A stretch of DNA of 64,000 nucleotides from Candidatus Micrarchaeota archaeon (lineage in GTDB: Archaea; Micrarchaeota; Micrarchaeia; Norongarragalinales; JAPLXB01): contig JAPLXB010000022.1 of the NCBI GenBank assembly GCA_026396285.1, forward strand, positions 9,506-73,505, written 5' to 3'. Every line of letters begins with the position of its first letter. The stretch's first letter is position 1. Of this stretch, positions 8,869-61,040 are shown in pieces. A model generated the notes under the pieces. It made no database searches. It saw only the letters and a program-made list of their open reading frames with translations, and was not told the DNA's origin. The position numbers were made by a program, and so were the translations under genes.

Positions 8869-8928
8869 CACGCTTTTTGACCGCCGGAAAGGCCGTTTTT
8901 GAAGAAAAGCAAAGGTGGCGGCCTCGGT

Positions 8929-37085: not shown

Positions 37086-38363
37086 ATGGGTTTGCTTGAC
37101 GGCCTGGCGGGTTTCTGGAAAAAGCCCGGACCCAAGCCGGCTGCCGGGCGCAGGGAAATGCGCCTCGGCGAACTCGAGTCCTTCCTGAAAACGGAAAGGG
37201 CGGGAAAGCTCGCGCCTTTTGCGGAAAAATCGCGGGACGCGTGCGGAAAAATACTGGACGAACTCGCCGACGCCGCGCGGGCCGCGGAATCCCTCAGGGA
37301 CGCGGAGCCGACCGGCAAATGGAGCCGCATCGGCGAACAAATGAGGGAAAACTTCATCACACGCATAGTCCCGACCCTTGGAATCGCGCGCCACGGCGAA
37401 GGCTTTGAAGCCGCCGCCGAGTTCCACTCCAAGGCGTTCGCGGCAATCTCGGCGTGCACGAAAATATTGTCGGACAACCGGTACCTCCTGCACTTCTTTC
37501 CCAAATCCATGGGCGGTTTCGCGAAGAGGATGAACGCGGCGTCGGCGCTCGTTGAGGAACTCGGCAAAATCGTGCAAGGGGGCCGGCAGGCGGCCGCGGG
37601 GTTTGACGCGGCGGTTGGCGCGCTGAGGGAACGCGAGAAAACGCTCTCGGAGAAGGCTGTTGCCGAGAAGGAGATGGGTGAGTTGGAGGCGTTCAAAACC
37701 GGTTTGAAAAAGAGGATTGCGGAAGAGACTGCGGCCGCGTTGCCCGGGGGAAGGGGGCTTGGCGGCGCGGTTGCCGGAGGAGGCGCTTACGGGGCTGTTG
37801 AAAAAATCGCCGGCATTGAAAAGCGCGTTGGGGCGCTGAAGGCGGAGTTGGCGGTGATGCTGAACCCCCTGGATCGGCTGTTTAGGAAGTTGGAAAAAAT
37901 TTCCCTTGAGAAGCGCGTGGCTGAAAAAGCCGCTTTTTACGCGGCCGGCCCCGCCGACGCAGTGGTTGAAGGCGGAGAGGAAGGGTTGGAGGAATTGAAG
38001 CGCCTTGCAGAAGAAGTCGGCAAGGAACTCGCCGCCGGCCGCTTGGAGACGGACGGGGAGAAGAGGAAGAAAGCAGTGGCTGCTCTGGAACGGATTGACT
38101 TTGGAAAAGTTTCCGCGGCAGTGAACGAACTGGGTTCGCTTGAGAAGGAAAAGGCCGCGGCCGCAGCAGTGCTTGAAAGGGAAAAGGCCGCAGAGCGCGA
38201 GAGGCGGGACTTGGAGGAGGAGCTTGCGGCGGTGGAAATGAAGAAGGTGGCGTTGGAGGAAAAAATACGCGGCGCGGCGAAAAAACTCGCCGAATCCGTG
38301 GCGGGCATTGAAAAAAGCGCTTCCGCGGCCGCTGGCGTTGAAATAAAAATAGCCGCTGAATAA
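37086..38363 (+). CDS. Ala/Glu/Lys-rich coiled-coil protein (cytoplasmic), first gene of the filament supercluster
   Basis: 425 aa from the ATG at 37086. The longer ORF-track version overlaps endA on the other strand. Heptad-like EELAAxxAALE repeats run throughout. No TM. It ends 25 nt before the first class III signal-peptide gene. Confidence 0.4.
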   Translation: MGLLDGLAGFWKKPGPKPAAGRREMRLGELESFLKTERAGKLAPFAEKSRDACGKILDELADAARAAESLRDAEPTGKWSRIGEQMRENFITRIVPTLGIARHGEGFEAAAEFHSKAFAAISACTKILSDNRYLLHFFPKSMGGFAKRMNAASALVEELGKIVQGGRQAAAGFDAAVGALREREKTLSEKAVAEKEMGELEAFKTGLKKRIAEETAAALPGGRGLGGAVAGGGAYGAVEKIAGIEKRVGALKAELAVMLNPLDRLFRKLEKISLEKRVAEKAAFYAAGPADAVVEGGEEGLEELKRLAEEVGKELAAGRLETDGEKRKKAVAALERIDFGKVSAAVNELGSLEKEKAAAAAVLEREKAAERERRDLEEELAAVEMKKVALEEKIRGAAKKLAESVAGIEKSASAAAGVEIKIAAE

Positions 38364-38387
38364 CGCTGAATAAGTAATTCGGGGAGA

Positions 38388-38813
38388 TTGCTTCGGGTGG
38401 ATTGCTTGAGGGGACAGGCTGGTCTTGAATACGCGGCGATGGTGGCGATTGCAATCGCCATCATGGTTCCAATCTGGCTGTATGCGAGCGGCAGCATGGC
38501 TTCCGCAAAAGCGGAACTCCAATCGTCATACGCGAGGCAGCTCGTGAACAAGGTCTCAAACGCTGCTGACACCGTTTTCGTCCAAGGCGAGCCAGCCCAG
38601 TTGACGCTTTTTGTTGAATTTCCGGAAGGGCTGACTTCCGCGACCGTTGCCGGAAACGAAATTTCGTTCAGGCTTGTTACCGCGGCAGGCCCGACTGACG
38701 TTTACGCCGTCTCTCTTGCGAACCTCAGCGGCTCACTTTCAACGCGGCCGGGAAAGCACCGCGTCATAGTGAAGGCGTCTGGCGGGGCAGTCACGGTAAG
38801 CGAGGGTGATTGA
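38388..38813 (+). CDS. Class III (prepilin-type) signal peptide protein, pilin/FlaF-G-like
   Basis: 141 aa. The N-terminus ...LRGQAGLEYAAMVAIAIAIMV has a basic residue, G|Q, and E at +5 of a 20-aa hydrophobic helix. Confidence 0.55.
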   Translation: MLRVDCLRGQAGLEYAAMVAIAIAIMVPIWLYASGSMASAKAELQSSYARQLVNKVSNAADTVFVQGEPAQLTLFVEFPEGLTSATVAGNEISFRLVTAAGPTDVYAVSLANLSGSLSTRPGKHRVIVKASGGAVTVSEGD

Positions 38814-39206
38814 ATCCGCGCCCAGTCCTCCATTGAACTCCTCGCCGTAGTCGGCTTTTTGATAGCGATGTTCGCGGCTTTCACCGCAGTGAGCGACGCA
38901 AACAAGACATCCGCCCTTGAAAGGTCTGTTACAATGGACGCGAAACGCGTGTGCGACGCCGCCGCCGGTGAAATAAACACTGCCGAAAGCGTGGGGGACG
39001 GGTATTCCCATTCATTCCTCATCCCTGACTTCATTTTCGGGAGAGTCAATTTCTCCGTTCAACTTGTTCCCGAGACGCGGACCGTGGCGTGCTCGTGGAG
39101 CGGCGGCTTTTATGAAAGCCCGGTGCTTGCGGCGAATTTCACGGGCAACGTGCGCAAGGGAACAAACACGGTAACCAATTTCGCGGGAGTGGTTTCAGTT
39201 GGCTAG
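38814..39206 (+). CDS. Class III signal peptide protein (start codon unresolved)
   Basis: In frame directly after the TGA of the previous gene the sequence reads IRAQSSIELLAVVGFLIAMFAAFTAV, a prepilin-like N-terminus. No ATG/GTG precedes it. The first conventional start is the TTG at 38859, which would cut the hydrophobic helix. Confidence 0.35.
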   Translation: MRAQSSIELLAVVGFLIAMFAAFTAVSDANKTSALERSVTMDAKRVCDAAAGEINTAESVGDGYSHSFLIPDFIFGRVNFSVQLVPETRTVACSWSGGFYESPVLAANFTGNVRKGTNTVTNFAGVVSVG

Positions 39207-40317
39207 GGCGCAGGTTTTTGCAACAGATTTTGCCGCAAGCATCGTGATATTCTTTTCAGCGGTCTTGGTGGTTTCGCTGGCATGGAACGGTTTCCTGTCC
39301 GAATCAGCGGACGCTTCAACCCGCCACGCGATGCTCGTTTCGGCCCACTACGCCGCCGACGCCCTCGTGCAAACCCAGGGGGTGCCGGCCGCATGGAACG
39401 AGTCAACCGCCGTAGCAATTGGTTTGGCGGACGGCGAGCGCGTGCTTAACCTTTCGAAAATAATTTCCCTCCGGAAAATGGATTACGACGAGGCAAAGGC
39501 CATGCTGCGGCTCGGGCCATACCACTTCCGGCTGTCCATCACGGGAAAGAACGGCACGCTGCATTCCGGAATAATGCGGCCGAAAATCGCGCTTTTCGCA
39601 GTTGAAAAAACAGACCTCCTGCCGGTCGTGAACTCGTCGGGAATGCCGTGGGACTTTTACTACGGAAAGGAAGCGCCGGTTCCGGAAGGGCTTACTGCCG
39701 GCAAGGCGATAAGCGGCCCAAAGGCGGGCGTTTTCAACATGATGCTTGGAAACGGTTCCGCGTATTCCTTCATCGTCATAGAGGAACCGCGGCTCGCCCA
39801 AGCCGATGTCGATGCCGCTTCCCTTGAATCGTTCGTGCGACGCGGCGGCACCCTTTTACTTGAAGACGGCATCGGATGGGACGGCGAACTGCTGGTGGAG
39901 AATTACGGCATGCATGCAGTGGGTTTCGGGGAAAACCATGACGGGCCAGTTGTTTCCGGCGGGTATTTCCTTTCAAACGTTTCCCCCGGCGAATTAGTCT
40001 CCTTCGGTTCGTCGCAGTGGGGTTTGTTCCAGGCAGCGGGCGACTCGCCGATTTCAATGCACGTCGCGGACTCGGGCAACGCGTCACTCGCGCTGGCGGC
40101 GTCATGGAAGCACGGCTTTGGCACGATTTACTATCTTGCAGACGCTTCTGGTTCCGTTGGCGGAACGCCCCTCATCAACTCCCTGAACTTGGTCGGGGAA
40201 CCGCTGGAATACGGGCTTGAAGGAAACCCTTATGATGCTGCAGTGGTGACGCGCGCGGTGATAGTGCGGGGCGACTGGTCGGTTCCGGCAAATCTCGGCG
40301 TGGTGGTTTGGAAATGA
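39199..40317 (+). CDS. Class III signal peptide protein (372 aa)
   Basis: TTG start. (M)ARAQVFATDFAASIVIFFSAVLVV is a prepilin-like N-terminus. It overlaps its neighbours by 8 nt and 10 nt. Confidence 0.5.
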   Translation: MARAQVFATDFAASIVIFFSAVLVVSLAWNGFLSESADASTRHAMLVSAHYAADALVQTQGVPAAWNESTAVAIGLADGERVLNLSKIISLRKMDYDEAKAMLRLGPYHFRLSITGKNGTLHSGIMRPKIALFAVEKTDLLPVVNSSGMPWDFYYGKEAPVPEGLTAGKAISGPKAGVFNMMLGNGSAYSFIVIEEPRLAQADVDAASLESFVRRGGTLLLEDGIGWDGELLVENYGMHAVGFGENHDGPVVSGGYFLSNVSPGELVSFGSSQWGLFQAAGDSPISMHVADSGNASLALAASWKHGFGTIYYLADASGSVGGTPLINSLNLVGEPLEYGLEGNPYDAAVVTRAVIVRGDWSVPANLGVVVWK

Positions 40318-43300
40318 AAAGAATGTTTTTCCTCAGCCTGGATTCGCTGGTGGCGATAACCCTGCTGCTCGCCATTGTCCCGGCAATCGCTTTTTTTGAA
40401 AGCGCGTCCACGAACCAGGTGCTGCTTCAAAAGCAGTTGTACGTCCAGTCAGCGGACCTCGCCGACGTGATGTCCAAACTCAAGTTGGCTGACGTGGCAA
40501 CCGAACCAGTGGTTTCAAACGCGGTTGCCGCCGGCCTGATTGCCGAAAGCGACTTGAACAGGACCTTCCTTGAGGAACTCGTGGAGTTGTGGGCTTCGGG
40601 CACCGCCGGGAACGCGAGTCTGGCGCGCAACCTGACTGAAGGGATATTTTCCGGTTTTGTTTCCGGCAACCTGCGGTGGGCAGTCCTGTTGGACGGGGAC
40701 GAGATATTCAACTCATCCGGCGGAACAGGCTACCTTGTTGCTGCCGGGCGGAAAATAATATCGGGCCGGACGCGCAACGTTTCGGCCACGGGCTGCATTG
40801 CCAGCGCGGGCCTGCACTCCATTAAAAGCAAGTCTGCGGCCGCGTACTCGTTTTTCGGGGGTTTCGAGGGCGAAGGCAACCTCACGAAGGTAGTCAAGGG
40901 AATTCCTGATTCGTCCACGGTCAGCCTGATTCATCTCGAATTGTCCGCGGGGAACGCCTTCGAGCTGTCCGTCAACAACCATTCATGCGGCATTTTCAAC
41001 GCGACTCCAGGCAACCTCTCAGTCGACTCCTGGGAAATAACCGATGCCAACTGCACCGGCGCCATAGCCCCCGGCGAAGACAATTACTTTTACCTCAACT
41101 TCTCCGAAGCCCCTCTTGAAAAAAGCTACATCGGCGGCGGTTTCATAAAAGTAGTGTACGACACCAGCGAACTGAACCCGCCTTCCCCCAACGTTTTCCG
41201 CCACGACTTTCCAGGGATAAACGGCCTCATCAACTATTACTCCTCGTTCTATGTCCCGGGCAACGTGACTTCAATGAACCTCCGCCTCCACCTGTACAAC
41301 AATTACACCACATATGTAACAATAGGCAACGCAACGGTAATGAACTTTTCAGGCACCAACGAGTCCAGGTGGGTCAACGCCACCGACGCAAACCTTTCGG
41401 CCCTCCTGAACTATTCCCAAACCGGCTCGGCCACGATTCCGATACGAATAGGTGTGGAAGCTAACGTGACCAGCGGTAAGGTAAACGGGACCGCCGACGT
41501 CGTCCTCATAACCGATATTTCAGGGAGCATGGACTGGCAGATGAACAACAGCAACACCGGCACGCTAGTGAACAACTGCAGCGACCCCCGGCTGTACAGC
41601 TACACGACGAAGAGGATAAGCCTCGCAAAATGCCTTGACAAGAATTTCGTGGACCAAGTGCTCAGCCTGGAAGGCAACCGCGTCGCGCTGGTGGCATTCA
41701 ACAACAGCGTCGCGGCATACGAAAACCTGACTTCAAACGCGACCTACCTCGGCGGCATGATCAACAGGTACGCCGCAGTGGGCTCCACCTGCATCGCCTG
41801 CGCAATAAACAAGGCCTACGACCTCCTCGCCCAGCAAAGCACGGCAGGAAGGAAAAAATACATCGTGGTAATGAGCGACGGCGTCGCCAACCAGCGGGCC
41901 ACCCCCACGTGCTCGAACCTGAACGGCGTGAGCTGCGTCAACTCGGCGGCATTCGCGGTCGGAAACCTGGGAAACCGGATTGCGGCGTACAACCCCGCAT
42001 CGGACGACTGGGAGGCGCTGGAAACGAACTTCACGAGCACGTTCCGCGCCACGGCGGCCCTCAACTCGTCGTTCGCTTTCGCGGTAGGCGACTCGGGCAT
42101 AATACTCAAATGGGACGGGGCGAACTGGGCGAATGTCTCAAGCGCGTTCACCAACACTCTGCGCGGCGTCGCCATTTTCAACTCGTCCCTGGCGTTCGCG
42201 GTAGGCGACTCGGGCAGGATACTGAAATGGAACGGCACGACGTGGGCCAACGTTTCCAGCGGCGTGTCGGACAACCTGCGCGGCGTTTCGTTTGCGAACG
42301 CGTCCCTCGCTCTCGCAGTGGGCGACGGCGGGAGAATACTCAAGTGGAACGGCGCGTCATGGAGCGCGGACTCAAGCCCGACGACCAAGGATTACTACGG
42401 AGTGGATGCCCTCAACAACGCGCTCGCGTTTGCCGTCACTACGCGCAGCAGTTCGACCGCGGTGGTTGCGAAATGGAACGGCACGACATGGTCGTCCAAC
42501 TATTCGGCATCCCAGTCCCTGCGGGGCGTCGATGTCTTCAATAGTTCCCTTGCGTTCGCGGTTTCAACAAGCGGCAGGGTTTACCAGTGGTCAGGCGGCT
42601 CATGGTCATATACCACGCCGGCCTCGGATGAACTTGACTCGGTCAGCGTCTGCAACGCGTCGCGCGGCTGGGCCGCCGGCCAGCTCAACGGCCAATTATT
42701 GAAATGGGCTGGCTCGGCCTGGAGCACGGCGCAATACCCGCAATTCTCGTATGCGGGCGAATCGCCAACGGGCGTGGACTGCAGCGACGACGACTCCTGC
42801 TCGCTTTCGACGAGCATTCCGGTCAAGAACGCGAATTACAGCGCGTGCAGGGCGTTCAATTCAATCCAGAACCTCACCATCGACTCTATCGGCTTCGGCC
42901 CGGTCTCGTCCTGCCAGTTGGCGAACACCAGCCTTCGCTCGGTGGCGGACTGCGGAAACGGCACTTATTATTCAAGCGACAACGCCACGGAACTCGCGGG
43001 CGTCTACCGCCAGATAGCCGACAAGATACTGGTCCAGTCGACGATAACGCAGGTGCTGAACGTGACCGGAAACATCACGACGATACTCTATCCCGACTCC
43101 TACCTCGAAGCGGATTATTCGCCGGAAACCCAGCCGCCAGGATACCAGGAAATAACCGTGAACCTCGAAGCCGGGCCGTTCCAGTCGTGCAACGCGAGCT
43201 TCCTCGTGCCCCCCAAGATAAACGTGACCGAAGCGATGGCCACATCATATTCCGGCGTTTACTGGAGCGACAACGTTTCAATCAGGAACTCGCTGACTGC

Positions 43301-43877
43301 CGGGGAGTGGAAGAACCTCTTCTGGCTCGGAAACTACGGGAATTACACGCGCCTGGGCGACCCCTTCGTCATTCAGTTCCCGCCCTCGAACATCGCGGTG
43401 AACGAAACGAACCAAATTTACATCAAGACCGGGTATTCGCCGGCAAACTCGAGCCAGTACTGTTCCCAAGGCAACAAGCTGATTTATTCCGCCAGGATAA
43501 AGGCCGCGGTGCCCTACTCCCAGGTCCTCCCCAACTGCGGGGGCGGGGTCGTTCGCGTCTTTTACGACACCAACTACGACGGAGTCGCGGATTCCAGCGT
43601 TAATGTCACGGTGGGCTCGAACTCGTCGCCAGGATTCAATCCCGTTCCAAGGGACGTGTGGGAACTCCAGCCGGGCAGCAACGCGGTCGACGACGCTTTC
43701 CTGCGCCTTCTTTCCCTCCTCCGCCTCGTTTCAGGCAATTCGACTGCGCGGCCCGGGAGCGAGGAAAACCCCGTGAACTTCGCCCTCTCAGACCAGCTCA
43801 CTCCGGAGATAACCCTGACTACCGGAATACCTTACTTATGGGGACCGGTTCAAGTGGAGGTGATAACATGGGTGTGA
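40308..43877 (+). CDS. Large pilin-like protein with vWA domain and BNR/Ycf48-like beta-propeller repeats (1189 aa); candidate tip adhesin
   Basis: N-terminal MFFLSLDSLVAITLLLAIV hydrophobic anchor in prepilin style. A vWA MIDAS DVVLITDISGSMDW...VALVAFNN...VVMSDGVAN. At least 7 repeats of SSLAFAVGDSGRILKWNGTTWANVSS (SxDxGxTW-like). Many sequons. Confidence 0.65.
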   Translation: MEMKRMFFLSLDSLVAITLLLAIVPAIAFFESASTNQVLLQKQLYVQSADLADVMSKLKLADVATEPVVSNAVAAGLIAESDLNRTFLEELVELWASGTAGNASLARNLTEGIFSGFVSGNLRWAVLLDGDEIFNSSGGTGYLVAAGRKIISGRTRNVSATGCIASAGLHSIKSKSAAAYSFFGGFEGEGNLTKVVKGIPDSSTVSLIHLELSAGNAFELSVNNHSCGIFNATPGNLSVDSWEITDANCTGAIAPGEDNYFYLNFSEAPLEKSYIGGGFIKVVYDTSELNPPSPNVFRHDFPGINGLINYYSSFYVPGNVTSMNLRLHLYNNYTTYVTIGNATVMNFSGTNESRWVNATDANLSALLNYSQTGSATIPIRIGVEANVTSGKVNGTADVVLITDISGSMDWQMNNSNTGTLVNNCSDPRLYSYTTKRISLAKCLDKNFVDQVLSLEGNRVALVAFNNSVAAYENLTSNATYLGGMINRYAAVGSTCIACAINKAYDLLAQQSTAGRKKYIVVMSDGVANQRATPTCSNLNGVSCVNSAAFAVGNLGNRIAAYNPASDDWEALETNFTSTFRATAALNSSFAFAVGDSGIILKWDGANWANVSSAFTNTLRGVAIFNSSLAFAVGDSGRILKWNGTTWANVSSGVSDNLRGVSFANASLALAVGDGGRILKWNGASWSADSSPTTKDYYGVDALNNALAFAVTTRSSSTAVVAKWNGTTWSSNYSASQSLRGVDVFNSSLAFAVSTSGRVYQWSGGSWSYTTPASDELDSVSVCNASRGWAAGQLNGQLLKWAGSAWSTAQYPQFSYAGESPTGVDCSDDDSCSLSTSIPVKNANYSACRAFNSIQNLTIDSIGFGPVSSCQLANTSLRSVADCGNGTYYSSDNATELAGVYRQIADKILVQSTITQVLNVTGNITTILYPDSYLEADYSPETQPPGYQEITVNLEAGPFQSCNASFLVPPKINVTEAMATSYSGVYWSDNVSIRNSLTAGEWKNLFWLGNYGNYTRLGDPFVIQFPPSNIAVNETNQIYIKTGYSPANSSQYCSQGNKLIYSARIKAAVPYSQVLPNCGGGVVRVFYDTNYDGVADSSVNVTVGSNSSPGFNPVPRDVWELQPGSNAVDDAFLRLLSLLRLVSGNSTARPGSEENPVNFALSDQLTPEITLTTGIPYLWGPVQVEVITWV

Positions 43878-44812
43878 GGGGATTCCTTTACTCCATCGCG
43901 CTCCTGCTATTCATCATTCCAATAGTGTTTTTCATAAGCAACTACTTCGCCATCGCGTCCGCAAACGACTACGAGGCAACAATAGGCATCCGGGGCAGCG
44001 AATTCGCGTCGTTCGTCAATTCAATCTCATCGGACTTGCCGCGCGCCCTCCTCATAAGCGGCCGCAACTCTGTTGCTTCGGCGGTGTCCAGCGTTACCGG
44101 GACCGGCGCGCCGCTTGACGACGCGGCCCTGCGGCTCGAGGAACTGGCGCTTAACGGGACGCTGTACGGCCACGCCGCCATGAACGCTTCCCTCTCGCGG
44201 TGGGCGCAGCGCGTGCAGGAAATCGGGCGCGCCCGCGGGTTTGAAACGCGGATGGTCTTCGAATCGCTGAATGCCAGGCAGCTGGATTCGTTCAGCCTCG
44301 AGTTTTCAGCAACCGTTTCAATAAACATTAGCGACCGGGTCTCGAGCATGAACGTTTTCAGGACGCGGCATGAGACTGCACTGCTGCCAATAAACGGCTT
44401 TGAAGACCCGCTCTATGCGCTTGAAACAAACGGCATAATGCACCGCGTCATAAGCGAGGCCAACGAGACAGTCTATGGCGTAGCGGGAGTCGACCGCGCA
44501 ATAGCACAAAAGTATTACCTGCCTGCCGGCGATGGGGCAAGCTTCCTTGACCGCCTCGAGGGCGCGACCCAGGTTTCTGAAAAATACGCGAACCTTTCCC
44601 AACAGCCAATAGGGCTGGAGACTTTCGTGGACGTGCAGGAACTGCTCGACAACGGCCTTGAAATAAAGCAGGACCGGACTGTGGTGGACCACCTTTACTT
44701 CAACGAAACCGCCCCTCCAGGTTATGCGGTGAACGGCTCGCAATACCCCTTGTTCAGGATAGATGCGGAGCACGCCGCCCTATATGGCGTGAACGGCTCG
44801 CTCGCAGGCTGA
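43868..44812 (+). CDS. N-terminally anchored extracytoplasmic protein (314 aa), prepilin-like N-terminus
   Basis: The ATG overlaps the upstream stop (ATGGGTGTGA). MGVRGFLYSIALLLFIIPIVFFISNYFAIAS then a soluble domain. The longer ORF-track start at 43658 is judged a spurious extension. Confidence 0.45.
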   Translation: MGVRGFLYSIALLLFIIPIVFFISNYFAIASANDYEATIGIRGSEFASFVNSISSDLPRALLISGRNSVASAVSSVTGTGAPLDDAALRLEELALNGTLYGHAAMNASLSRWAQRVQEIGRARGFETRMVFESLNARQLDSFSLEFSATVSINISDRVSSMNVFRTRHETALLPINGFEDPLYALETNGIMHRVISEANETVYGVAGVDRAIAQKYYLPAGDGASFLDRLEGATQVSEKYANLSQQPIGLETFVDVQELLDNGLEIKQDRTVVDHLYFNETAPPGYAVNGSQYPLFRIDAEHAALYGVNGSLAG

Positions 44813-44818
44813 GGCACC

Positions 44819-44834
44819 TTATTAAAACCGGTTT
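44819..44834 (+). promoter_or_regulatory. TATA-like element with palindrome (TTATTAAAACCGGTTT) upstream of the wHTH/ATPase gene pair
   Basis: AT-rich box centred about 25-30 nt before the TTG/ATG start at 44846-44855. The same ATTAAAACCGGTTT 14-mer recurs at 59781. Confidence 0.35.
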
Positions 44835-44845
44835 GAATAATTCCC

Positions 44846-47058: not shown

Positions 47059-47061
47059 AGC

Positions 47062-48990: not shown

Positions 48991-49063
48991 GGCACGCTTT
49001 TACCATGCCCCTCCGCCGCGCGATTAAAACGATTTTTATACCAAACGCGCTTTCCCTTTAATC

Positions 49064-50958: not shown

Positions 50959-50968
50959 GGAATTTGAA

Positions 50969-53128: not shown

Positions 53129-53133
53129 ATTGA

Positions 53134-54094: not shown

Positions 54095-54518
54095 AAACCG
54101 GAGAAAGGGGTTTTTCTTCACGCTGGACGCGCTGCTTGCAGTAGCGTTTTCAATCGCCATATTCATCCTCGTAGTCAAAACGCTTGAAACCGCCCAAACA
54201 ACCGCCTCTGCCGACGTCGGCCTCGCGAGACTGGGCCAGGACCTGCTCGCCGGCATGGAAAAAAACGGCGCACTGGCTGAAGCCGTGCTGACCTCCTCCG
54301 GCGCCATCCTATCCGCCTCAACAGGAGTGCTTCCACCGGACATGTGCGGAAAAATAACCGTGAAAAAAAGCCCGGGCAACGCAGTCATCCTCGCGAACAG
54401 CCCCTCCTGCCGGTGCACGGAACGCAGGGTCGCGGCCTCCCGAAGCTTCGCCACCGCCGCAACCGGTTTTGACGAGTACGTTGCCTCAATAGAATTGTGC
54501 AGGAGGAAAAACACATGA
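54078..54518 (+). CDS. Class III signal peptide protein (146 aa)
   Basis: MFGLNENRRKGFFFTLDALLAVAFSIAIFILVV (K-G|F, Asp at +5). Confidence 0.5.
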   Translation: MFGLNENRRKGFFFTLDALLAVAFSIAIFILVVKTLETAQTTASADVGLARLGQDLLAGMEKNGALAEAVLTSSGAILSASTGVLPPDMCGKITVKKSPGNAVILANSPSCRCTERRVAASRSFATAATGFDEYVASIELCRRKNT

Positions 54519-55372
54519 CACAAAAAGGCTTCGTGTTCGCACTCTTCTTCCTCTCCTTCTTCACGCTCCTCCTAGGCGTCGCAGTCTACTACGACGCCTC
54601 GGTCACCGCCTGGGAAAGGACGGTGCTGGACGCGCGGCGCGTGGAAAAAGCCTCGTTCGCGGCAGACGACGTCGCATGGGACTTGAAGAAATTCTACGGC
54701 CTCGACACCGTGGCAATAGCCAAGACCCCGACAAACTCCAGCATAACAATTTCATCCGCCATCCCATCCAATTTCTCCGACCCCGCCAGCGAATTGAGCG
54801 CCTACAAGCAGTTCCTCCAAGGCGCGTACAAAAACCAGGCGCATTCAAACGCCTCGCTCGCAGCCACCGGCAACCACCTTTTTTTCACGGGCTTGAACGC
54901 GGACTACTCCTGGAATAACGAGAGCCGCAACGCAGTGAGGATGGCTGGCGGAAACGCGTTCGCCTACACCCTGCGGGGGGCGCTGAGCGGCTACTGCGAC
55001 TTCCCGGCCTGCCCGGCAAACATCACGGGCTGGTCTTGGATCGGGTGCGGGGGAAACGCCATTGCCATAACCCTTGACATCAGGGACGCGGGAAACACGC
55101 CAGCCACGGTTTCCGGCGCAACAACCGGCTGCGTCTCGCCTTCGTCCACCAACGGGTTCTTCGTCCCGGCAGGCGCGGGAACGCTTTACGTAAGCGCCGG
55201 AAGCGTTTCAGGAACCTCTCCGGCAATCGCGCTGAACGTCACGCAGTCCCTCTCGTTCTCGTTCACGCTCGAATCCAATTTCTCCTCTGCACCGGACACG
55301 CGCGCAGTCCTACCGGCCTCGCTTTCCGTCGACGGCCAGAACTACGCGTGGCTGGCGGTTGATGAAAAATGA
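54515..55372 (+). CDS. Class III signal peptide protein (about 285 aa)
   Basis: MTQKGFVFALFFLSFFTLLLGV (K-G|F). The start is taken at the second Met of the ORF-track ORF (54497). Confidence 0.5.
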   Translation: MTQKGFVFALFFLSFFTLLLGVAVYYDASVTAWERTVLDARRVEKASFAADDVAWDLKKFYGLDTVAIAKTPTNSSITISSAIPSNFSDPASELSAYKQFLQGAYKNQAHSNASLAATGNHLFFTGLNADYSWNNESRNAVRMAGGNAFAYTLRGALSGYCDFPACPANITGWSWIGCGGNAIAITLDIRDAGNTPATVSGATTGCVSPSSTNGFFVPAGAGTLYVSAGSVSGTSPAIALNVTQSLSFSFTLESNFSSAPDTRAVLPASLSVDGQNYAWLAVDEK

Positions 55373-55410
55373 ATATATTAAGGGAACGACTAATCAACGC
55401 GGGGACTTGA

Positions 55411-57723
55411 ATGAAGAAAAAAACCGCTGCAAAGAAGGGAACGGCCGGAAAACAGGCGGCCAAAGCGCGCGCGGCCAGCGGCGCCACCCGCGCAAAGAGC
55501 CACGCGCCGGCCCATCCGGCCACCCACGCGCACCACGTAAAGAAAATACGCAAGGAAATCCACCGGGCGCGCAAGGAACTCGATAAGGCGCGTAGGAAAA
55601 TCCTCGAGGCCGCGGCGACGGCAAAAGCAGCGGCGCAAGTTCCAGTACCCGCGCCGGCACCGCTTCCGGCTCCCGCACCCAAACCAGCGCAAAAAGCCGG
55701 GGGATCCCCCATCGACGCGCTCAAGAAAATATCGTTAGGAATATCCTTCGGCAAAAAGACCGCGCCAGCGCCATCGGCCGCTCCAACGCCGGCACCCGCG
55801 GCCGCTCCTGTTGCGGAAGCGAAGCCATCCGCGGAACCAAAACCGGCCGAAGCACCTGCGCCGTCCACGGCCCCAAAACCCGGGAAAAAGGCCGCAGCCG
55901 AAAAACAGCCCAAGACGGCCGCTGTCCCTGCGCCGGAAGAGGCAACTGAACCGAAAAAAGGCGTGCTGTTCGTCGAGTCCCCGGTCGACCGGATGTGCTA
56001 CGCGCTTGAAAACGCTCCGGGCAACGAGATGATGCTGGAGGCGCTTGCGGCTGAGACAGGCGTGGACGTCGCGTCGCTTGAAAGAATAGGGAAAATCCTC
56101 CAGGAAGAAGACGTATGCGAAATGATTTACCCAGTCAACGTGTTCTCGAAACCATCCATACGGCTGGTTGCAAAACAGCAGAAAAAAGCCCTCCGGCACT
56201 TCGAGGGCGACAAGCTCCTCTCCTCGTATTCGCTTGAGGAAAGCGGGGTCCCGGCCAACGTTGAAATCTGGGAGGCCAGAAGCGAAGCAAGGCCAGTGTA
56301 CTCGATAGTCGTTTCCGCCGCCGGGCCGTACACGGAAATGTTCCTCAATTACCTGCGGGACGCGATGGCGCGCGAAGTCCCCGTCCTCACCGAGGAAATC
56401 ACCGACCCAAAAAAACTGGCCAAACTCAAGGGACGCTTCTACGCCGCATCCCAAGCCAAACTCGCCGAGGAACTCGGCAGCCTCGTTGAAGACAAGAGGA
56501 ACATGCTCGCAGGCATGCTGCTCCACCGCATGTACGGCCTCGGCGAAATAGAGTTGTTGATGGCGGACAACTGGCTCGAGGAAATAGGAATCAACAGCGC
56601 AACCGAACCCATCGGCGTATACCACAAGAAGTTCGGGTGGCTCAAGACGACGATGCGCATCCCTTCCGAGGAGGAGATATACAATTACGCTTCCCAAATC
56701 GGGAGAAAAGCCGGCAGGGACATAACGCTCCTGAACCCGCTCATGGACGCGAACCTCCTGACGGGCGACCGCGTCGCGGCCACGCTCTTCCCCATTTCCT
56801 CGTCGGGGAACACGATAACCATCCGCAGGTTCGCCCGCGTCCCCTGGACGATAACAGACTTCATCAGCCCCGCGCTCAACACGATGTCCGTCGAAATGGC
56901 TGCGTTCCTGTGGCTGTGCGTCCAGTACGAGATAAACATCATGGTGGCCGGCGGCACCGCGTCAGGAAAGACGTCGGCACTCAACACTATATCGGCGCTC
57001 ACGCCCGCTTCCCAAAGGATAGTGAGCGTCGAAGACACGCGGGAACTCAACCTCCCCAAATACCTCAGATGGAACTGGATACCGCTGACCACGCGGGGCC
57101 CCAACCCCGAAGGAAAGGGCGAAGTGGAAATGCTGGACCTCACCGTCGCCGCGCTCAGGATGAGGCCGGACCGCGTCATAGTCGGCGAAGTCAGGAGAAA
57201 ACGCGAGGCAGAAGTCCTGTTCGAAGCCATGCACACCGGCCACGCAGTCTATTCCACGCTGCACGCGGACAACGCCGTCCAAGCCATCCGCAGGCTAAAC
57301 GAGGCGCCGATAGAAATCCCCAAGACCGAATTGGATGCGCTTCACTTGATGATGGTCCAGTACCGCGACCGCCGCAAAGGCATACGGAGAACATATGAGA
57401 TAACCGAACTCACCAGCGCATCAGGCGGCGAAGTCGTCCTCAACCCGTTATACAAGTGGAGGCCCCGCGACGACACGTTCGAAAAACGCAACGACAGCCT
57501 CAGGGTTTTCGGAGAACTCAACATGCACACCGGCATGACCGTCGACGAAATAAAAAGCGACATCGGCGAAAAACAAAAAGTGCTCGAATGGATGCTGGAA
57601 AACAAGGTCACGGACATAGACAAGGTCGGTGAAGTAATGAACATCTATTACAAGGAACCCGACTCAGTCGTGTCGGCGGCGAAAAAAAAGACGCCGGTAG
57701 CCGAACTTCTTGGTGAAAAATGA
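55411..57723 (+). CDS. Type IV filament ATPase, FlaI/TadA family (module 2) with roughly 170-aa Lys/Ala/Pro-rich N-terminal extension and fused wHTH-like segment
   Basis: 770 aa. Walker A GGTASGKTS and a His box MHTGHAV. Residues 1-170 are a low-complexity basic AKP-rich region. Residues about 185-260 (VDRMCYALENAPGNEMMLEALAAETGVDVASLERIGKILQEEDV) resemble the N-domain of the stand-alone protein at 44846. Confidence 0.85.
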   Translation: MKKKTAAKKGTAGKQAAKARAASGATRAKSHAPAHPATHAHHVKKIRKEIHRARKELDKARRKILEAAATAKAAAQVPVPAPAPLPAPAPKPAQKAGGSPIDALKKISLGISFGKKTAPAPSAAPTPAPAAAPVAEAKPSAEPKPAEAPAPSTAPKPGKKAAAEKQPKTAAVPAPEEATEPKKGVLFVESPVDRMCYALENAPGNEMMLEALAAETGVDVASLERIGKILQEEDVCEMIYPVNVFSKPSIRLVAKQQKKALRHFEGDKLLSSYSLEESGVPANVEIWEARSEARPVYSIVVSAAGPYTEMFLNYLRDAMAREVPVLTEEITDPKKLAKLKGRFYAASQAKLAEELGSLVEDKRNMLAGMLLHRMYGLGEIELLMADNWLEEIGINSATEPIGVYHKKFGWLKTTMRIPSEEEIYNYASQIGRKAGRDITLLNPLMDANLLTGDRVAATLFPISSSGNTITIRRFARVPWTITDFISPALNTMSVEMAAFLWLCVQYEINIMVAGGTASGKTSALNTISALTPASQRIVSVEDTRELNLPKYLRWNWIPLTTRGPNPEGKGEVEMLDLTVAALRMRPDRVIVGEVRRKREAEVLFEAMHTGHAVYSTLHADNAVQAIRRLNEAPIEIPKTELDALHLMMVQYRDRRKGIRRTYEITELTSASGGEVVLNPLYKWRPRDDTFEKRNDSLRVFGELNMHTGMTVDEIKSDIGEKQKVLEWMLENKVTDIDKVGEVMNIYYKEPDSVVSAAKKKTPVAELLGEK

Positions 57724-58661
57724 TGGAGGTAGCCATATTTCTCTTCATCATCCCGAAAACCCTTGAAGCCCCCCTGGCGAGGAGGCTCCGCGGACTCGGC
57801 GGAAAACTCGGCTCCCTCGTCCCCGGCCTTGGATACGACCTGAGGGAACTCGGAGAAGCGGACGCGGGAAAATACGTTGCCCGCGCCCTCCTGAACTCGG
57901 TCCTCTGGGGAATCCTCCTCACGCTCCTCATATCTTTCTTCCTATTCACCACAGGAAGGCTCAAGCCCGAAATATTGGCGCAAACATTCTCAAACAATGC
58001 GGCGCTGTCATACGCCGCCGCCGGAATCCTCCCGGCAGTAGGCAGCGGAATATTCGTCACCGCCCTCCTCCTCGCGTTCCTCCTATACTACCCGCACATA
58101 CTTGCCAGGAAACTCGCGGAAACAGTGGACAAGGACTTGATATTCGCGCTCAAGGACCTCCAACTCCAGATCGGCTCAGGAGTCAGCCTGTTCAACGCCA
58201 TGGTCAACGTCTCCAAAGCCGGCTACGGCAACGTGTCCAAGCAGTTTGACTCGGTCGTAAAGGACATTTCCGCAGGCGAGGCAGAGGACGCGGCGCTTGA
58301 AAAAATGGCTGCACACACCGAATCCGAGTTCATGAAAAGGACGGTGTGGCAGATGATCACCGCCCTCCGCGGCGGCGCAAGCCTGGAAGGCGCTCTCTCC
58401 AGCATAATATCAGTGCTGAAAAGGGACCAGGCGTCCAGGATAAGAACATTCATCCATGAACTCAACCTCTGGGCCCTTGTCTACATGATAGTGGCAGTGG
58501 CGGTGCCGGGCCTCGGCTCAACGGTCCTTATCGTAATATCCGCCTTCGGAGGAATAGTGGTCACCGAAATGACTTACGTCTTCGCCCTAGTCGCCTGCTT
58601 CATCGCCGAAATAGTCATAATCGGTTTCATAAAATCAAGGAGGCCAATCGTCCACCTGTAA
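57720..58661 (+). CDS. TadB/TadC(FlaJ)-like membrane platform protein (module 2, first)
   Basis: 313 aa. The start overlaps the ATPase stop. T2SS-F-like cytoplasmic domain (LIFALKDLQLQIGSGVSLFNAM...). Confidence 0.65.
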   Translation: MMEVAIFLFIIPKTLEAPLARRLRGLGGKLGSLVPGLGYDLRELGEADAGKYVARALLNSVLWGILLTLLISFFLFTTGRLKPEILAQTFSNNAALSYAAAGILPAVGSGIFVTALLLAFLLYYPHILARKLAETVDKDLIFALKDLQLQIGSGVSLFNAMVNVSKAGYGNVSKQFDSVVKDISAGEAEDAALEKMAAHTESEFMKRTVWQMITALRGGASLEGALSSIISVLKRDQASRIRTFIHELNLWALVYMIVAVAVPGLGSTVLIVISAFGGIVVTEMTYVFALVACFIAEIVIIGFIKSRRPIVHL

Positions 58662-58718
58662 AAGCCGGCTTGAAAGAAATTGCGCTGCAAAAACTTCGCA
58701 AAAAAAAGGTCTTCAACA

Positions 58719-59735
58719 ATGAAAAAATCCATCCTGCCGATAACCGGGACTTACTACGTTATTGTAGACCTCCTGCCGCACGCGTACCGCACCGGCCTGA
58801 AGAAAAGGCTCGCGCACGCGGGAATCACGATGGACCTGGAACTATGGCTGGGCCCAATCATACTCTCCTCGCTGGTAATAGGACTCCTTTGCCTCGCCGT
58901 CGCATGGGGCCTTCTGGACGTCTTCGACCCCGTCCTCCTCGCCGCATCATTCCTCGCCGGCTTACTGATAATCATCATTGCAGCATACACCCTCCTCGCC
59001 ACCCAGATAGATGAAAGGAAGGCGCGCGTGGAAAAAGTCCTCCCCGACGCGCTGCACATCATGGCCGCCAACATACGCACCGGCGCGCCGCCAATGATCG
59101 CGTTGCGCATGACCGCGCGCCCCGAATTCGGGCCCCTAGAGGAGGAAATAAAGTACGTTACCACAAAGTCGCTGGGCACCGAGTCCTTCACCGACGCCCT
59201 CAACGAAATGTCGCACCGAATCCCCTCAGACATCTTCGCCAGAACAGTGTCGCTGATCGCGGCCAGCCTCAAGGCGGGCGGGAAACTGGCGCAACTCCTT
59301 GAAAGCGTGGCGGAAGACATCAGGGAAACCCAGGAACTGAAAGCGGAATTGGTGACGAACAGCAACCTCTACATACTGTTCATCGCCTTCACAGTCGTAA
59401 TCGGCACGCCGCTCCTGCTCGCGGTCTCCGTGCACTTCACGACCATGGTTGCAGACCTCCAAAAAGCCCCAGTCGCCGCGTCGCTGTCTGAGGAAGTCGG
59501 AGTCAACAGCATCGGCCTCATCATCAGCACGCCTTTTTCAGTGACTTTCGTGGAAAACGCGGGCTACTTTGTGATACTCATGACCAACATCTTGGCCGGG
59601 GTGCTCATGGGCGCCATCCGGGAGGGCAAGGAAACGAGCGGGTTGAAGTACGTTCCGTTCATGTTGATAATCTCGTTCATAGTCTACTTCATCGTGAAGG
59701 ACGTCATACTGCAGTTCCTGAGGTCTGCGGCCTGA
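58719..59735 (+). CDS. TadB/TadC(FlaJ)-like membrane platform protein (module 2, second)
   Basis: About 339 aa from MKKSILPITG. LPDALHIMAANIRTGAPPMIAL. Same layout as 47938. Confidence 0.6.
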   Translation: MKKSILPITGTYYVIVDLLPHAYRTGLKKRLAHAGITMDLELWLGPIILSSLVIGLLCLAVAWGLLDVFDPVLLAASFLAGLLIIIIAAYTLLATQIDERKARVEKVLPDALHIMAANIRTGAPPMIALRMTARPEFGPLEEEIKYVTTKSLGTESFTDALNEMSHRIPSDIFARTVSLIAASLKAGGKLAQLLESVAEDIRETQELKAELVTNSNLYILFIAFTVVIGTPLLLAVSVHFTTMVADLQKAPVAASLSEEVGVNSIGLIISTPFSVTFVENAGYFVILMTNILAGVLMGAIREGKETSGLKYVPFMLIISFIVYFIVKDVILQFLRSAA

Positions 59736-59780
59736 AACCGCCCGGCAAACAAAGAAAGGCTTAAAAAACCCGGAATTGTA

Positions 59781-59795
59781 ATTAAAACCGGTTTT
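59781..59795 (+). promoter_or_regulatory. TATA-like element with palindrome (ATTAAAACCGGTTTT) upstream of the pilin gene 59809
   Basis: About 20 nt before the ATG. It shares the 14-mer ATTAAAACCGGTTT with 44821-44834. Confidence 0.35.
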
Positions 59796-59808
59796 GGTGA
59801 TGGAATAA

Positions 59809-60345
59809 ATGGCTTCAAGACGCGGGCAGGCGGCAGTGGAATACCTGATTATCCTTGCAGTCGTCATCATCATCGCGCTCGTCGTCGTAGGCGTGCTGGG
59901 CGGCTTCCCGTCGTTGACGAGGGGCGTGAACGAGAAGGAAAGCGCCTTGTACTGGCAGGGCTCTGAAATCGCGATACAAAAATACTTCTTCGCTTCAGCC
60001 GTTCCCCTCACCACAACCAACAGCAGCATAAGTTTAAGAAATAACAAAAATTTTGATATCCGCTTTAGTCTTCCATACGGAATTCAAATGACAAAAGGCG
60101 ACGGTACTTTTACCGCAGTGCCTCTGAATTGCAAAACCGTTTCAGACTGCAGCGGAAATACAACGGTTACAATGTCCCCAGGGGATTCCAAAAACTTAGT
60201 CATAGCCTACCCTAACTGGGTTACTGATTTCTGCAACAGCAAGGGCGACACGTTCAGCCGCAAAGTCACATTCAACTATACAGACACTGAAGGCAATTAT
60301 TACATCTTCGTGGGCACTGTTCCGCTCGTGACGACGTGCCAGTGA
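59809..60345 (+). CDS. Class III signal peptide pilin-like protein (178 aa)
   Basis: MASRRGQAAVEYLIILAVVIIIALVVVGVL (R-G|Q, E at +5, Tyr at +6). The C-terminal half of the gene is conspicuously AT-rich. Confidence 0.6.
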   Translation: MASRRGQAAVEYLIILAVVIIIALVVVGVLGGFPSLTRGVNEKESALYWQGSEIAIQKYFFASAVPLTTTNSSISLRNNKNFDIRFSLPYGIQMTKGDGTFTAVPLNCKTVSDCSGNTTVTMSPGDSKNLVIAYPNWVTDFCNSKGDTFSRKVTFNYTDTEGNYYIFVGTVPLVTTCQ

Positions 60346-60390
60346 AATTCATGAGTATTTTTTTGAATCGAGTTTTGAGGTGAAAATGAA

Positions 60391-60792
60391 ATGAAGACAA
60401 AAGGACAAACCGCTCTGGAGTACCTAGTCACCTACGGCTGGGCAATACTTGCCATAGTCATCATCGCGGCAGTGCTGTACTACTTCGGAGTGTTCAACCC
60501 GAGCAAGCTCGTCAGCGGGCAACAGTGTGGCGGATTCTCTGCATTCACGTGCATTGACTACACCAACACCGCGGTAAACGCGACGGTCGTGCTTGGCAAC
60601 AACATGGGCAGGCAGCTCAACATAACCGGCGGCGCAACCTGCACCCCGACGCTCATTGGGGCGAACCAGCAGACGATTTGCGTGTTCACCGGCGAATTCA
60701 CGCCCGGCAGCGAAGCCACGCTCAGCTTGTCATACACTGACACGCAATCAACCCTCGCGAAGACCGACAGCGGCTTCATAAGGGCGAAGTAA
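60391..60792 (+). CDS. Class III signal peptide pilin-like protein (133 aa)
   Basis: MKTKGQTALEYLVTYGWAILAIVIIAAVL (K-G|Q, E at +5). Confidence 0.6.
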   Translation: MKTKGQTALEYLVTYGWAILAIVIIAAVLYYFGVFNPSKLVSGQQCGGFSAFTCIDYTNTAVNATVVLGNNMGRQLNITGGATCTPTLIGANQQTICVFTGEFTPGSEATLSLSYTDTQSTLAKTDSGFIRAK

Positions 60793-60802
60793 AAACCGTT
60801 TC

Positions 60803-60834
60803 CAAGGGGGTTTTCCCCCTTTTTCTCTTTTTTA
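60803..60834 (+). terminator. Hairpin plus oligo-T terminator-like element at the end of the filament supercluster
   Basis: AAGGGGGTTTTCCCCCTT hairpin followed by TTTTCTCTTTTTT, 10 nt after the last pilin stop. Confidence 0.4.
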
Positions 60835-61040
60835 CAACATTCAAGCGCAAGCGGCAGCCCCGGCCGGCGCCCGGCGTTCAATCCACTGCGTGGTTTATTA
60901 ATTTCTCAACCCCCAATCCGTTTGATGATGACCGGCAAACAAACTCTGAGGCGGAAGCCATTGAAGAATGACGGACGGGCTGAACAATTAAAACTCGCAG
61001 TGCATGGCGGGGTTAAAAACCAAGGCATGAAATTAAGGGC

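Follow-up and report, generated by a model that had tools for sequence, protein, structure and literature searches.

Two paralogous and probably complete type IV pilus systems arranged head to tail in a Candidatus Micrarchaeota contig

Genes related to type IV pili (T4P) form a dense, roughly 24-kb array in a contig of a Candidatus Micrarchaeota archaeon, a member of the DPANN archaea (GenBank assembly GCA_026396285.1, contig JAPLXB010000022.1, positions 9,506 to 73,505 of the forward strand). This whole stretch of 64,000 nt is called the window, coordinates are counted from its first letter, and genes are named by their start positions. Very likely, the array encodes two complete, paralogous archaeal T4P systems of the non-rotary, adhesion-pilus type, placed head to tail. 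System A (38388-48990, plus strand) comprises five pilin-like genes, a gene for a winged-helix/helical protein, an assembly ATPase and two platform halves. System B (49064-60792, plus strand) comprises a KaiC-family ATPase, five paralogous pilin-like genes, a Sec-type Gly-rich protein, an ATPase with the winged-helix domain fused to it, two platform halves and two PilA-like pilins. Their gene content, domain identities, paralogy, conservation and separability are directly observed.

The cells of Micrarchaeota and of other DPANN attach to host archaea, and their pili are prime suspects for recognising and holding the host. The window offers a gap-free example of both DPANN pilus types adjoining each other, with gene-by-gene correspondence of pilin classes, winged-helix domains, ATPases and platform halves. 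The window does not reveal a new type of machine; it is useful as a cleanly resolved locus for reference and for framing hypotheses.

Two separately conserved modules and their junction

Systems A and B are collinear paralogues, a relation that extends to the ATPases, the winged-helix domain, each platform half and all five classes of pilin. The ATPases, referred to as ATP1 (System A) and ATP2 (System B), share 51% identity, and the platform halves share 31% (47062 vs 57720) and 28.5% (47938 vs 58680). The pilins were compared with hhalign as alignments of homologues drawn from related loci. Class 1 (38388 vs 49858) reached 99.9% over 133 aa, class 2 (38814 vs 53134) 99.1% and class 3 (39199 vs 53522) 99.6%, while class 4 (40308 vs 54078) and class 5 (43868 vs 54515) reached 95.6% and 93.4% in their N-terminal parts. 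Moreover, the order of the five pilin classes is identical in both systems.

Conservation was assessed by a locus scan of one genome per species with an alignment of ATP1; the best 80 loci were all from DPANN, and all 22 window proteins were then mapped onto them. Among these loci, Systems A and B appear as two separately conserved modules. In the relatives, System A consists of orthologues of 38388, 38814, 39199, the von Willebrand factor A (vWA) gene and 43868, in which the pilin genes are sometimes divergent, followed by the winged-helix/helical gene, an ATP1-type ATPase, two platform genes and, usually, one to three pilins of the 60391 type. It is spread over Micrarchaeota, Woese-, Pace-, Aenigm-, Nano-, Iain- and Nanohaloarchaeota. 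System B in the relatives comprises KaiC and an extended pilin of the 49858 type, then a secreted protein whose size varies and four further pilin-like genes, and finally an ATP2-type ATPase with an extra N-terminal domain, a pair of platform genes and pilins. Blocks of this kind are present in Micrarchaeia (L087), in Iainarchaeum AR10 (L040) and in three more loci (L045, L016 and L051). Homologues of ATP1 and ATP2 are found at 50-87% identity across Micrarchaeota and other DPANN.

The separability of the modules is best seen in one 1.30-Mb Micrarchaeia contig (L087/L085), which carries System B at 34-56 kb and System A at 135-156 kb, about 90 kb apart, each with the same internal gene order as in the window. 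System A has no System B beside it in L083 and L085, and elsewhere in Micrarchaeota it is followed by unrelated genes. The order System A, KaiC, System B recurs in a different organism (L082, GCA_900174565.1), whose ATP1 is 87% identical; among the scanned loci, the tandem arrangement is common only to the window and this closest relative found. As Systems A and B lie apart in other Micrarchaeota, the supercluster described by the initial annotation is a lineage-restricted juxtaposition of two DPANN-wide loci, with its seam at 48991-49063.

That the two systems are separately conserved units, lying apart in other genomes, is also what would be expected if an assembly or binning artefact had joined two loci. 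The chance of such an artefact is practically negligible, and the explanation is effectively refuted already. For run SRR20698646, an independent Logan assembly spans 39064-58707 with both KaiC junctions and differs at 3 of 19,644 nt (99.985% identity), GC content is uniform over the region, and GCA_900174565.1 has the same order of System A, KaiC and System B. A chimera is ruled out because the independent assembly and a different organism both reproduce the arrangement.

The outer borders of the two systems are syntenic as well. Upstream, divergent from the cluster, lies a gene for a tRNA-splicing endonuclease of 383 aa (35753-36904, minus strand) with an N-domain and two stretches of catalytic domain; since the same gene lies upstream of System A in the 1.3-Mb contig (L085), this border is shared. 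Downstream, purine-biosynthesis genes (GARS and others) lie next to the System B pilins in the window (62368-63702, minus strand), as they do in the 1.3-Mb relative (L087, 15636-22274), so this border is syntenic too. In L082, a 75-aa gene and a PIN-domain gene, resembling a toxin-antitoxin pair (8383-8965), are located between the orthologues of KaiC and of the class 1 pilin of System B.

The array had been described as about 22 plus-strand genes with short or overlapping junctions, and the list of open reading frames (ORFs) bears this out. There are 22 consecutive plus-strand ORFs within 37086-60840, placed as the initial annotation had them, and at 16 of their 21 junctions neighbouring ORFs overlap or are separated by no more than 18 nt; the other five are gaps of more than 30 nt (33, 73, 38, 73 and 45 nt). 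The anatomy of the cluster is real and far beyond chance. The hairpin and oligo-T terminator proposed for its end was also recovered, as AAGGGGG-TTTT-CCCCCTT followed by a T-run at 60804-60834 (plus strand), and this GC-rich hairpin likely marks the end of transcription. At the boundary between Systems A and B (48991-49063), a gap of 73 nt contains TTTTTATA at 49033-49040, 23 nt upstream of the KaiC start. It reads as a promoter-like TATA box and may function as a promoter; The TATA-like element before KaiC is conserved in L082, with TTTTTATACC retained. TATA-like elements lie 23-30 nt upstream of the starts at 44846, 49064, 55411, 59809 and 60391. Because such elements precede five genes, the cluster probably has several internal promoters and transcription units and is not a single operon.

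A 10-bp palindrome, AAACCGGTTT, occurs four times in the window (36237, 37696, 44825 and 59785) against 0.1 copies expected. Two copies lie in gaps with TATA-like elements, before the winged-helix gene and before the 59809 pilin gene, and two lie in coding sequence. The palindrome was searched for in L082 and is absent there; for this reason its candidacy as an operator is weakened and it is kept as a side note only.

Assembly ATPases, platforms and the KaiC-family protein

The two ATPase/platform modules proposed at the outset were recovered by Pfam as two T2SSE proteins and two pairs of proteins with one T2SSF domain each. ATP1 (500 aa; 45556-47058, plus strand) matches T2SSE (PF00437) with E 3e-32 and ATP2 (770 aa; 55411-57723, plus strand) with E 1e-33. 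In ATP2, the ATPase core is preceded by an Ala/Lys/Pro-rich low-complexity N-tail (aa 1-185) and a winged-helix domain (aa ~186-255). Directly 3' of the ATPase genes lie the platform genes, all on the plus strand. In System A, a protein of 291 aa (47062-47937) aligns to the N-half of ArlJ/FlaJ and one of 350 aa (47938-48990) aligns to the C-half of ArlJ/FlaJ and to UpsF; the corresponding halves of System B measure 313 aa (57720-58661) and 351 aa (58680-59735). Exactly one PF00482 domain was found in each of the four, in agreement with the earlier description of single-domain platform proteins.

For the ATPases, initially labelled FlaI/TadA, both of these models stay below cut-off. Their best NCBIfam match is the FlaI model NF058587, which requires 550 bits and gives 291 and 275; the TadA model TIGR03819 requires 373 bits and gives 191 and 155. 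The closest solved relative of ATP1 is the Archaeoglobus fulgidus GspE (2OAP) with 245 bits, followed by FlaI with 192 and CpaF with 173, and 2OAP is also the best Foldseek match of the ATP2 model (E 3.5e-40). By sequence and by fold, FlaI ranks below 2OAP and the CpaF structures rank third. An identical ATP1 protein occurs in a metagenome-assembled genome of Candidatus Micrarchaeota (79-kb contig), and homologues of ATP1 are 58-87% identical throughout Micrarchaeota, including Norongarragalinales and Burarchaeum. A weak PilB3_C match, together with sub-threshold matches to DUF7287/7288/7289, points to the pili of euryarchaea and DPANN. Several ATP1 homologues of about 680 aa (P0078, P0081-P0083, P0088 and P0090-P0092) carry an intein (PF14890) inside the ATPase, for instance in a metagenome-assembled genome of Marsarchaeota.

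A recent transfer of a bacterial Tad system was considered and rejected, as the TadA model stays below its cut-off and CpaF comes third behind the archaeal GspE. Additionally, the Flp pilin, secretin (RcpA) and TadZ (ParA/MinD) families gave no Pfam match in the cluster proteins.

The gene upstream of ATP1 (44846-45559, plus strand) overlaps the ATP1 start and encodes a cytoplasmic protein of 237 aa with a winged helix (aa ~8-72), a helical part and a basic tail, showing weak MarR_2 and HTH_28 matches. Genes of this type are conserved upstream of ATP1-type ATPases. BLASTP found no match between the 237-aa protein and the N-terminal extension of ATP2; only a profile-profile alignment with hhalign related the protein to the N-domain of ATP2-type ATPases with 99.2% probability (E 3e-19). 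This domain is fused to the ATPase N-terminus throughout the ATP2 family. The AF2 model of ATP2 residues 180-770 (pLDDT 86, pTM 0.77) displays the a1-b1-a2-a3-b2-b3 topology of a winged helix, and ATP2 orthologues match PF25212 (HVO_A0114) above threshold and TrmB, MarR and Rrf2 weakly. The earlier suggestion of a free winged-helix protein in one module and a fused region in the other has thereby gained firm support. Basic, Ala/Pro/Lys-rich low-complexity tails occur in three proteins of the cluster: in the first 185 aa of ATP2 (55411-55965), in the first ~40 aa of the KaiC-family protein (49064-49180) and in the last ~40 aa of the winged-helix protein (45430-45559).

The first gene of System B (49064-49861, plus strand) encodes a single-domain KaiC-family ATPase (PF06745, E 3e-57) with the Walker A motif GDAGSGKS, the Walker B motif MVIDS and a retained catalytic Glu pair (TFEE). 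Compared with solved structures, it scores 128 bits on PH0186, 108-110 on KaiC CI and 32 on FlaH 4YDS. Its scores on the ArlH/FlaH models are 54 bits (NF052589, cut-off 215) and 56 bits (NF004723, cut-off 194), and that on TIGR03880 is 138 bits (cut-off 249). Of the proposed KaiC/FlaH-like ATPase, the KaiC part thus stands and the FlaH part does not. KaiC heads the System B block in L087, L040 and L045. Of 89 related loci, 25 have it no further than 9 kb from the ATPase, and with a share of only about a quarter KaiC does not belong to the core of the machine. A MinD/ParA gene stands upstream of KaiC only in the relative L087.

These features bear directly on whether the array might be a degenerate or hybrid archaellum-like rotary machine, a reading close to that of the initial annotation, with the KaiC protein in the FlaH/ArlH role beside a FlaI-like ATPase. 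Such a machine would accommodate the FlaI model as best NCBIfam match of both ATPases and the presence of a RecA-type KaiC-family ATPase in the cluster, and the cytoplasmic winged-helix/helical protein might serve as its scaffold. However, the 2OAP GspE surpasses FlaI by sequence and fold, both ATPases and the KaiC protein stay far below the FlaI and ArlH/FlaH cut-offs, and the platform is split and is not a two-domain FlaJ. Moreover, no Pfam match to archaellin, FlaF/G, FlaC/D/E or FlaX was obtained with any cluster protein, even when the E-value limit for the small pilin-like proteins was relaxed to as much as 1-5, in line with the initial remark that no obvious archaellin/FlaF/FlaG set is recognisable. 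Mia14 and most DPANN are also without archaella (PMC5498576). The archaellum was therefore rejected, and the rotary variant is highly improbable. The cluster is neither a textbook archaellum nor a Tad pilus, as first proposed, given the sub-threshold FlaI, FlaH and TadA models and the missing archaellin, Flp and secretin matches.

A different question is whether the winged-helix protein (44846-45559) and KaiC are parts of the pilus machine or transcriptional and signalling regulators, with the AAACCGGTTT palindromes as operators. The latter possibility, which is compatible with two adhesion-type T4P systems, draws on the winged-helix topology with its weak MarR/TrmB/HTH matches, on the excess of palindromes and the two copies in TATA-like gaps, and on the proposal of KaiC-like ATPases as T4P regulators (PMC4858521). 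It is nevertheless doubtful. The palindrome is missing from the 87% relative and half of its copies lie inside coding sequence. Furthermore, the ATP2 family as a whole has the winged-helix domain fused to its ATPase, and this speaks in favour of a domain that is physically associated with the motor.

Pilins and surface proteins

Twelve proteins of the cluster had been credited with class III (prepilin-type) N-termini, and all of them indeed possess a short basic N-region, Gly or Ala (Met in one) and a hydrophobic stretch. In a strict test ([KR][GA] followed by a hydrophobic stretch), 10 of the 12 pass, against none of 138 control ORFs of the window; 43868 and 53522 fail on technicalities only. 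The N-terminal motifs are conserved family-wide in the relatives, and the classes have their own signatures across DPANN. Classes 1 and 2 show Gln+1/Glu(Asp)+5, class 3 shows Gln+1/Asp+6, class 4 shows F-[TS]-L-D-A (FTLDA), and class 5 is devoid of the acidic residue. Gln is found at +1 in 8 of the 12 proteins, and Gln+1 is typical of EppA substrates. Pfam and NCBIfam scans of the small pilin-like proteins gave sub-threshold matches only (DUF7287/7288/7289 and PF04021), and for this reason they cannot be assigned to named pilin families. PF04021 (Class_IIIsignal; DUF361) comes nearest in 59809-60345, at 23.2 bits against a cut-off of 23.7, and is weak in one other pilin.

In System A, all on the plus strand, class 1 is a protein of 141 aa (38388-38813; RG|QAGLE, Gln+1/Glu+5) that passes the class III test and belongs to a family conserved across DPANN loci, and class 2 is a protein of about 130 aa (38814-39206; RA|QSSIE). 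Class 3 (372 aa; 39199-40317; RA|QVFATD, Asp+6) passes the test and shows a weak DUF7287 match. Class 4 is fused to an adhesin-like body (40308-43877), and class 5 (314 aa; 43868-44812) has the conserved motif RG|FLYSIALL with no acidic residue at +5/+6; its gene type adjoins the vWA gene in many DPANN loci. The 38814 gene opens right after the TGA stop of the 38388 gene (38811-38862). Its first canonical in-frame start, TTG at 38859, would drop the class III N-terminus IRAQSSIELL, and only the non-canonical ATC at 38814 retains it. The sequence of 38811-38862 is identical in the independent assembly (L001), and relatives have normal separate starts.

In System B, likewise on the plus strand, class 1 (366 aa; 49858-50958; KA|QTAVE) carries a C-terminal extension with a Cys/Pro-rich linker and an Ig-like region, and its orthologues measure 369-1206 aa with variable extensions. 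It passes the class III test, as do class 2 (132 aa; 53134-53532; KA|QVGMD, a conserved motif), class 4 (146 aa; 54078-54518; KG|FFFTLDA), which is a short counterpart of the vWA protein, and class 5 (285 aa; 54515-55372; KG|FVFALFF, again without the acidic residue); all five classes are further tied to System A by hhalign. Class 3 (~190 aa; 53522-54094; RG|QLFSID) has the conserved motif and a weak, full-length DUF7287 match (E 0.008). After the platform genes come two PilA-like pilins on the same strand. The first (178 aa; 59809-60345; RRG|QAAVEYL) has the near-threshold PF04021 match and is preceded by a 73-nt gap with a TATA-like element. The second (133 aa; 60391-60792; KG|QTALEYLVTYGWAIL) is a candidate major pilin, with an N-terminus nearly invariant in 49 homologues (GQxALEYLxTYGWAI). 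These homologues are usually encoded directly after platform genes, in up to three tandem copies.

The largest pilin-like protein is the class 4 protein of System A (1189 aa; 40308-43877, plus strand), in which Pfam found the predicted vWA domain (VWA_2/VWA). Its AF2 model (pLDDT 86.5) consists of an N-terminal pilin-like helix, beta-sandwiches, the vWA domain and C-terminal beta domains. The vWA domain spans aa 396-523 and 837-911, and a 7-bladed beta-propeller is inserted at aa 537-808. The Foldseek top matches are Ycf48 and WD40 propellers (E 1e-11); the top 50 matches in the Protein Data Bank (PDB) are dominated by generic beta-propellers and include neither PilY1 nor another pilus adhesin. 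The protein contains 53 N-glycosylation sequons, and its family occurs DPANN-wide.

The protein at 50969-53128 (plus strand), initially described as Sec-secreted and Gly-rich, has a Sec-type signal peptide, 28% Gly in aa 195-440 and 27 sequons. It matches the NCBIfam model AgmC_N with E 6e-40, below the model cut-off, and a gene of variable size occupies this position in L082 and L087. In front of System A, 37086-38363 (plus strand) encodes a cytoplasmic Ala/Glu/Lys-rich protein of 425 aa with no Pfam match, transmembrane (TM) segment or sequon. A homologue was found only in the close relative L082, directly upstream of the first pilin gene, and is absent from the System A loci of other Micrarchaeota (L083, L085); the product is possibly a lineage-specific accessory of System A. 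Its earlier description as a coiled-coil protein gained no support from a crude heptad-periodicity test.

The set of five differentiated pilin-like proteins resembles GspG-K of the bacterial type II secretion system (T2SS). One or both systems could be a T2SS-like or competence-like machine, in which a short five-pilin pseudopilus exports Sec cargo, such as the Gly-rich protein, or imports host DNA or macromolecules. This would agree with one of the five pilins having no acidic residue, with the Sec-type secreted protein embedded in System B at a conserved position and with the lack of an adjacent major pilin for System A in the window, and DNA import via pili has been speculated on for DPANN (PMC9563170, PMC5498576). 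On the other hand, most related loci have PilA-like pilins with a near-invariant N-terminus behind their platform genes, in many cases as tandem copies, which favours a long filament, and the modules of the largest pilin-like protein, a vWA domain and a propeller, are of a kind usual in adhesins. Archaea lack the outer membrane for which a piston would be needed, and no archaeal T2SS is known to have been demonstrated. Secretion or import is quite improbable as the purpose of these systems, and adhesion, suggested early on from the vWA protein, remains a plausible role.

Further genes upstream in the window encode Sec-type surface proteins, namely a beta-helix/NosD-like protein of 624 aa (12198-14072), a Big_7 protein of 760 aa (17385-19667, minus strand) and a Big_1/invasin-like protein of 1986 aa (19853-25813), which are additional candidates for cell-surface or host-contact functions. 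An archaeal rRNA operon (16S, tRNA-Ala, 23S) occupies 2803-8582 on the minus strand. The 23S match spans 3,649 nt for a model of 2,987 nt and the 16S match 1,611 nt for a model of 1,478 nt, which suggests insertions or introns in both rRNAs because the matches exceed the model lengths. A weak 59-nt tRNA match at 31536-31594 (Rfam, 29.1 bits, at threshold) was not called by ARAGORN and may be a fragment or an unusual tRNA.

Proposed mechanism and comparison with known systems

From these genes we infer filament formation, a tip location of the minor pilins, adhesion and a role of KaiC. A prepilin peptidase encoded outside the window would trim the 12 precursors. Each ATPase, as a PilB/GspE-like hexamer carrying or binding a winged-helix domain, would drive its two-part platform and lift subunits from the membrane. 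The five low-abundance pilins would prime assembly and end at the tip. In analogy to GspK-type subunits, the candidate for the cap is the class 5 pilin with its missing acidic residue. This tip complex would display the vWA/beta-propeller body in System A, or the extended class 1 pilin in System B, for binding to the host or to surfaces. The PilA-like pilins 59809 and 60391 would make up the shaft; they might serve both systems, given that System A has lost the corresponding gene in this window. For KaiC, the first gene of System B, regulation of the assembly ATPase or of its expression is the most likely function, in analogy to ArlH and ArlI of the archaellum (PMC8978795) and to the signalling role proposed for KaiC in archaea. 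The resulting filaments may attach to host cells or surfaces, and host or surface adhesion is the most likely role, in keeping with an episymbiotic lifestyle and with the heavy glycosylation predicted for the exposed parts.

A bolder version of this scheme, which we regard as tentative, envisages a control layer of DPANN pili that is cytoplasmic and specific to this lineage. Here the winged-helix domain on the ATPase would dock a KaiC-like hexamer that gates assembly by (auto)phosphorylation, as a pilus counterpart of ArlH-ArlI, and the five-class tip complex with its vWA/propeller protein would be a device for host recognition. If this were true, the system would be the first host-attachment machine to be defined in Micrarchaeota, and archaea would have arrived independently at a counterpart of the bacterial minor-pilin/PilY1 design. 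Testable candidates are, for the adhesin, the extended class 1 pilin and the vWA/propeller pilin and, for the regulator, KaiC.

Several observations weigh against reading the array as two complete adhesion-type systems. Genes of this family in DPANN are known from sequence alone. KaiC is present in only about a quarter of the related loci, and 38814, the second pilin gene of System A, is without a canonical start codon. In relatives a pilin gene normally comes after the platform genes of System A, but the window has none there, and assignment of the major pilin is based on copy number and conservation only. A search of the 64-kb window for a prepilin peptidase (PibD/FlaK/EppA, peptidase A24) found none, and the multi-TM candidates 16533-17354 and 11290-12189 have no Pfam match and no GxGD motif; in archaea this peptidase is commonly encoded away from the pilus locus (PMC5498576).

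The array had also been considered a possible hybrid or novel filament machine. This is not supported, because every premise of novelty is already in the literature, and the architecture has largely been described (PMC4858521, PMC6668835, PMC9563170, PMC5498576). Makarova, Koonin and Albers reported two tadC-like genes in clade 1 (Epd) and many clade 2 euryarchaeal systems, two ATPases in one archaeal T4P locus, KaiC-family ATPases encoded in or next to T4P operons, and vWA proteins and coiled-coil cytoplasmic proteins as associated components (PMC4858521). According to Denise et al., single-domain platform pairs define archaeal Epd-like pili, which are ancestral to bacterial Tad, and a FlaH-family secondary ATPase occurs in Epd loci (PMC6668835). 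Golyshina et al. described two distinct T4P systems in Micrarchaeon Mia14, with one peptidase elsewhere and no archaellum, whose components are common to many Micrarchaea (PMC5498576). DPANN clusters of TadA/B/C with kaiC copies were presented by Zhao et al. (PMC9563170).

The nearest known systems, judged by locus traits, are the euryarchaeal and DPANN T4P of clades 1 and 2 (Epd of Methanococcus maripaludis; PilB3/PilB4 of Haloferax volcanii). They share with the window a VirB11/PilB-family ATPase, two tadC-like single-domain platform genes, PilA-like major pilins with Gln+1 alongside at least five minor ones, and a large protein resembling an adhesin (PMC4858521, PMC6668835), as well as the frequent association of KaiC-family and MinD/FleN ATPases. 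The window differs from these clades by the DPANN-specific winged-helix domain on or before the ATPase and by two full systems in tandem. Compared with clade 1, the adhesin is a pilin-anchored vWA protein with an inserted propeller, whereas clade 1 has DUF2341 proteins. Epd major pilins measure about 70 aa, whereas the window pilins measure 130-180 aa, the precursors of the candidate major pilins (133-178 aa) not being short. Candidatus Mancarchaeum acidiphilum Mia14, the Nanohaloarchaeota and the Undinarchaeota, likewise DPANN, agree with the window in that their small genomes hold several T4P loci, with an ATPase, two TadC genes and class III pilins in series; some clusters include kaiC, an archaellum is lacking and the peptidase is encoded elsewhere (PMC5498576, PMC9563170). 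The five-pilin paralogy, the winged-helix domain and the tandem of Systems A and B are not described in those published annotation lists.

Bacterial Tad/Flp systems (TadA/CpaF, TadB, TadC, TadZ, TadG) have a split platform, a CpaF-related ATPase and a TadG-like vWA protein in common with the window. However, the window ATPases stay below the TadA cut-off and nearer to archaeal GspE, its platform order is N-half then C-half, Flp, secretin and TadZ matches are missing from its cluster, and its host is archaeal; the split platform itself does not discriminate, because archaeal Epd-like pili share it (PMC6668835). The archaellum belongs to the same type IV filament superfamily and also has a RecA/KaiC-family ATPase beside the assembly ATPase, but the window has a KaiC that is not a FlaH orthologue, ATPases below the FlaI cut-off, a split platform and no match to archaellin, FlaF/G or FlaCDE/X. 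By analogy only, bacterial tip complexes (FimU-PilVWX-PilY1; GspH-I-J-K) follow the same logic of four to five differentiated minor pilins, one of them without the acidic residue, and a vWA/beta-propeller adhesin. This likeness draws on features of PilY1 and GspK. In contrast to the PilY1 complexes, the window adhesin is itself pilin-like, its propeller lies inside the vWA domain, and PilY1 is not among its 50 top Foldseek matches. What was not found in the papers cited is modest, being refinements within a known kind: the collinear paralogy of whole systems, the winged-helix domain that is free in one and fused in the other, and the pilin-anchored vWA protein with a propeller inside it.

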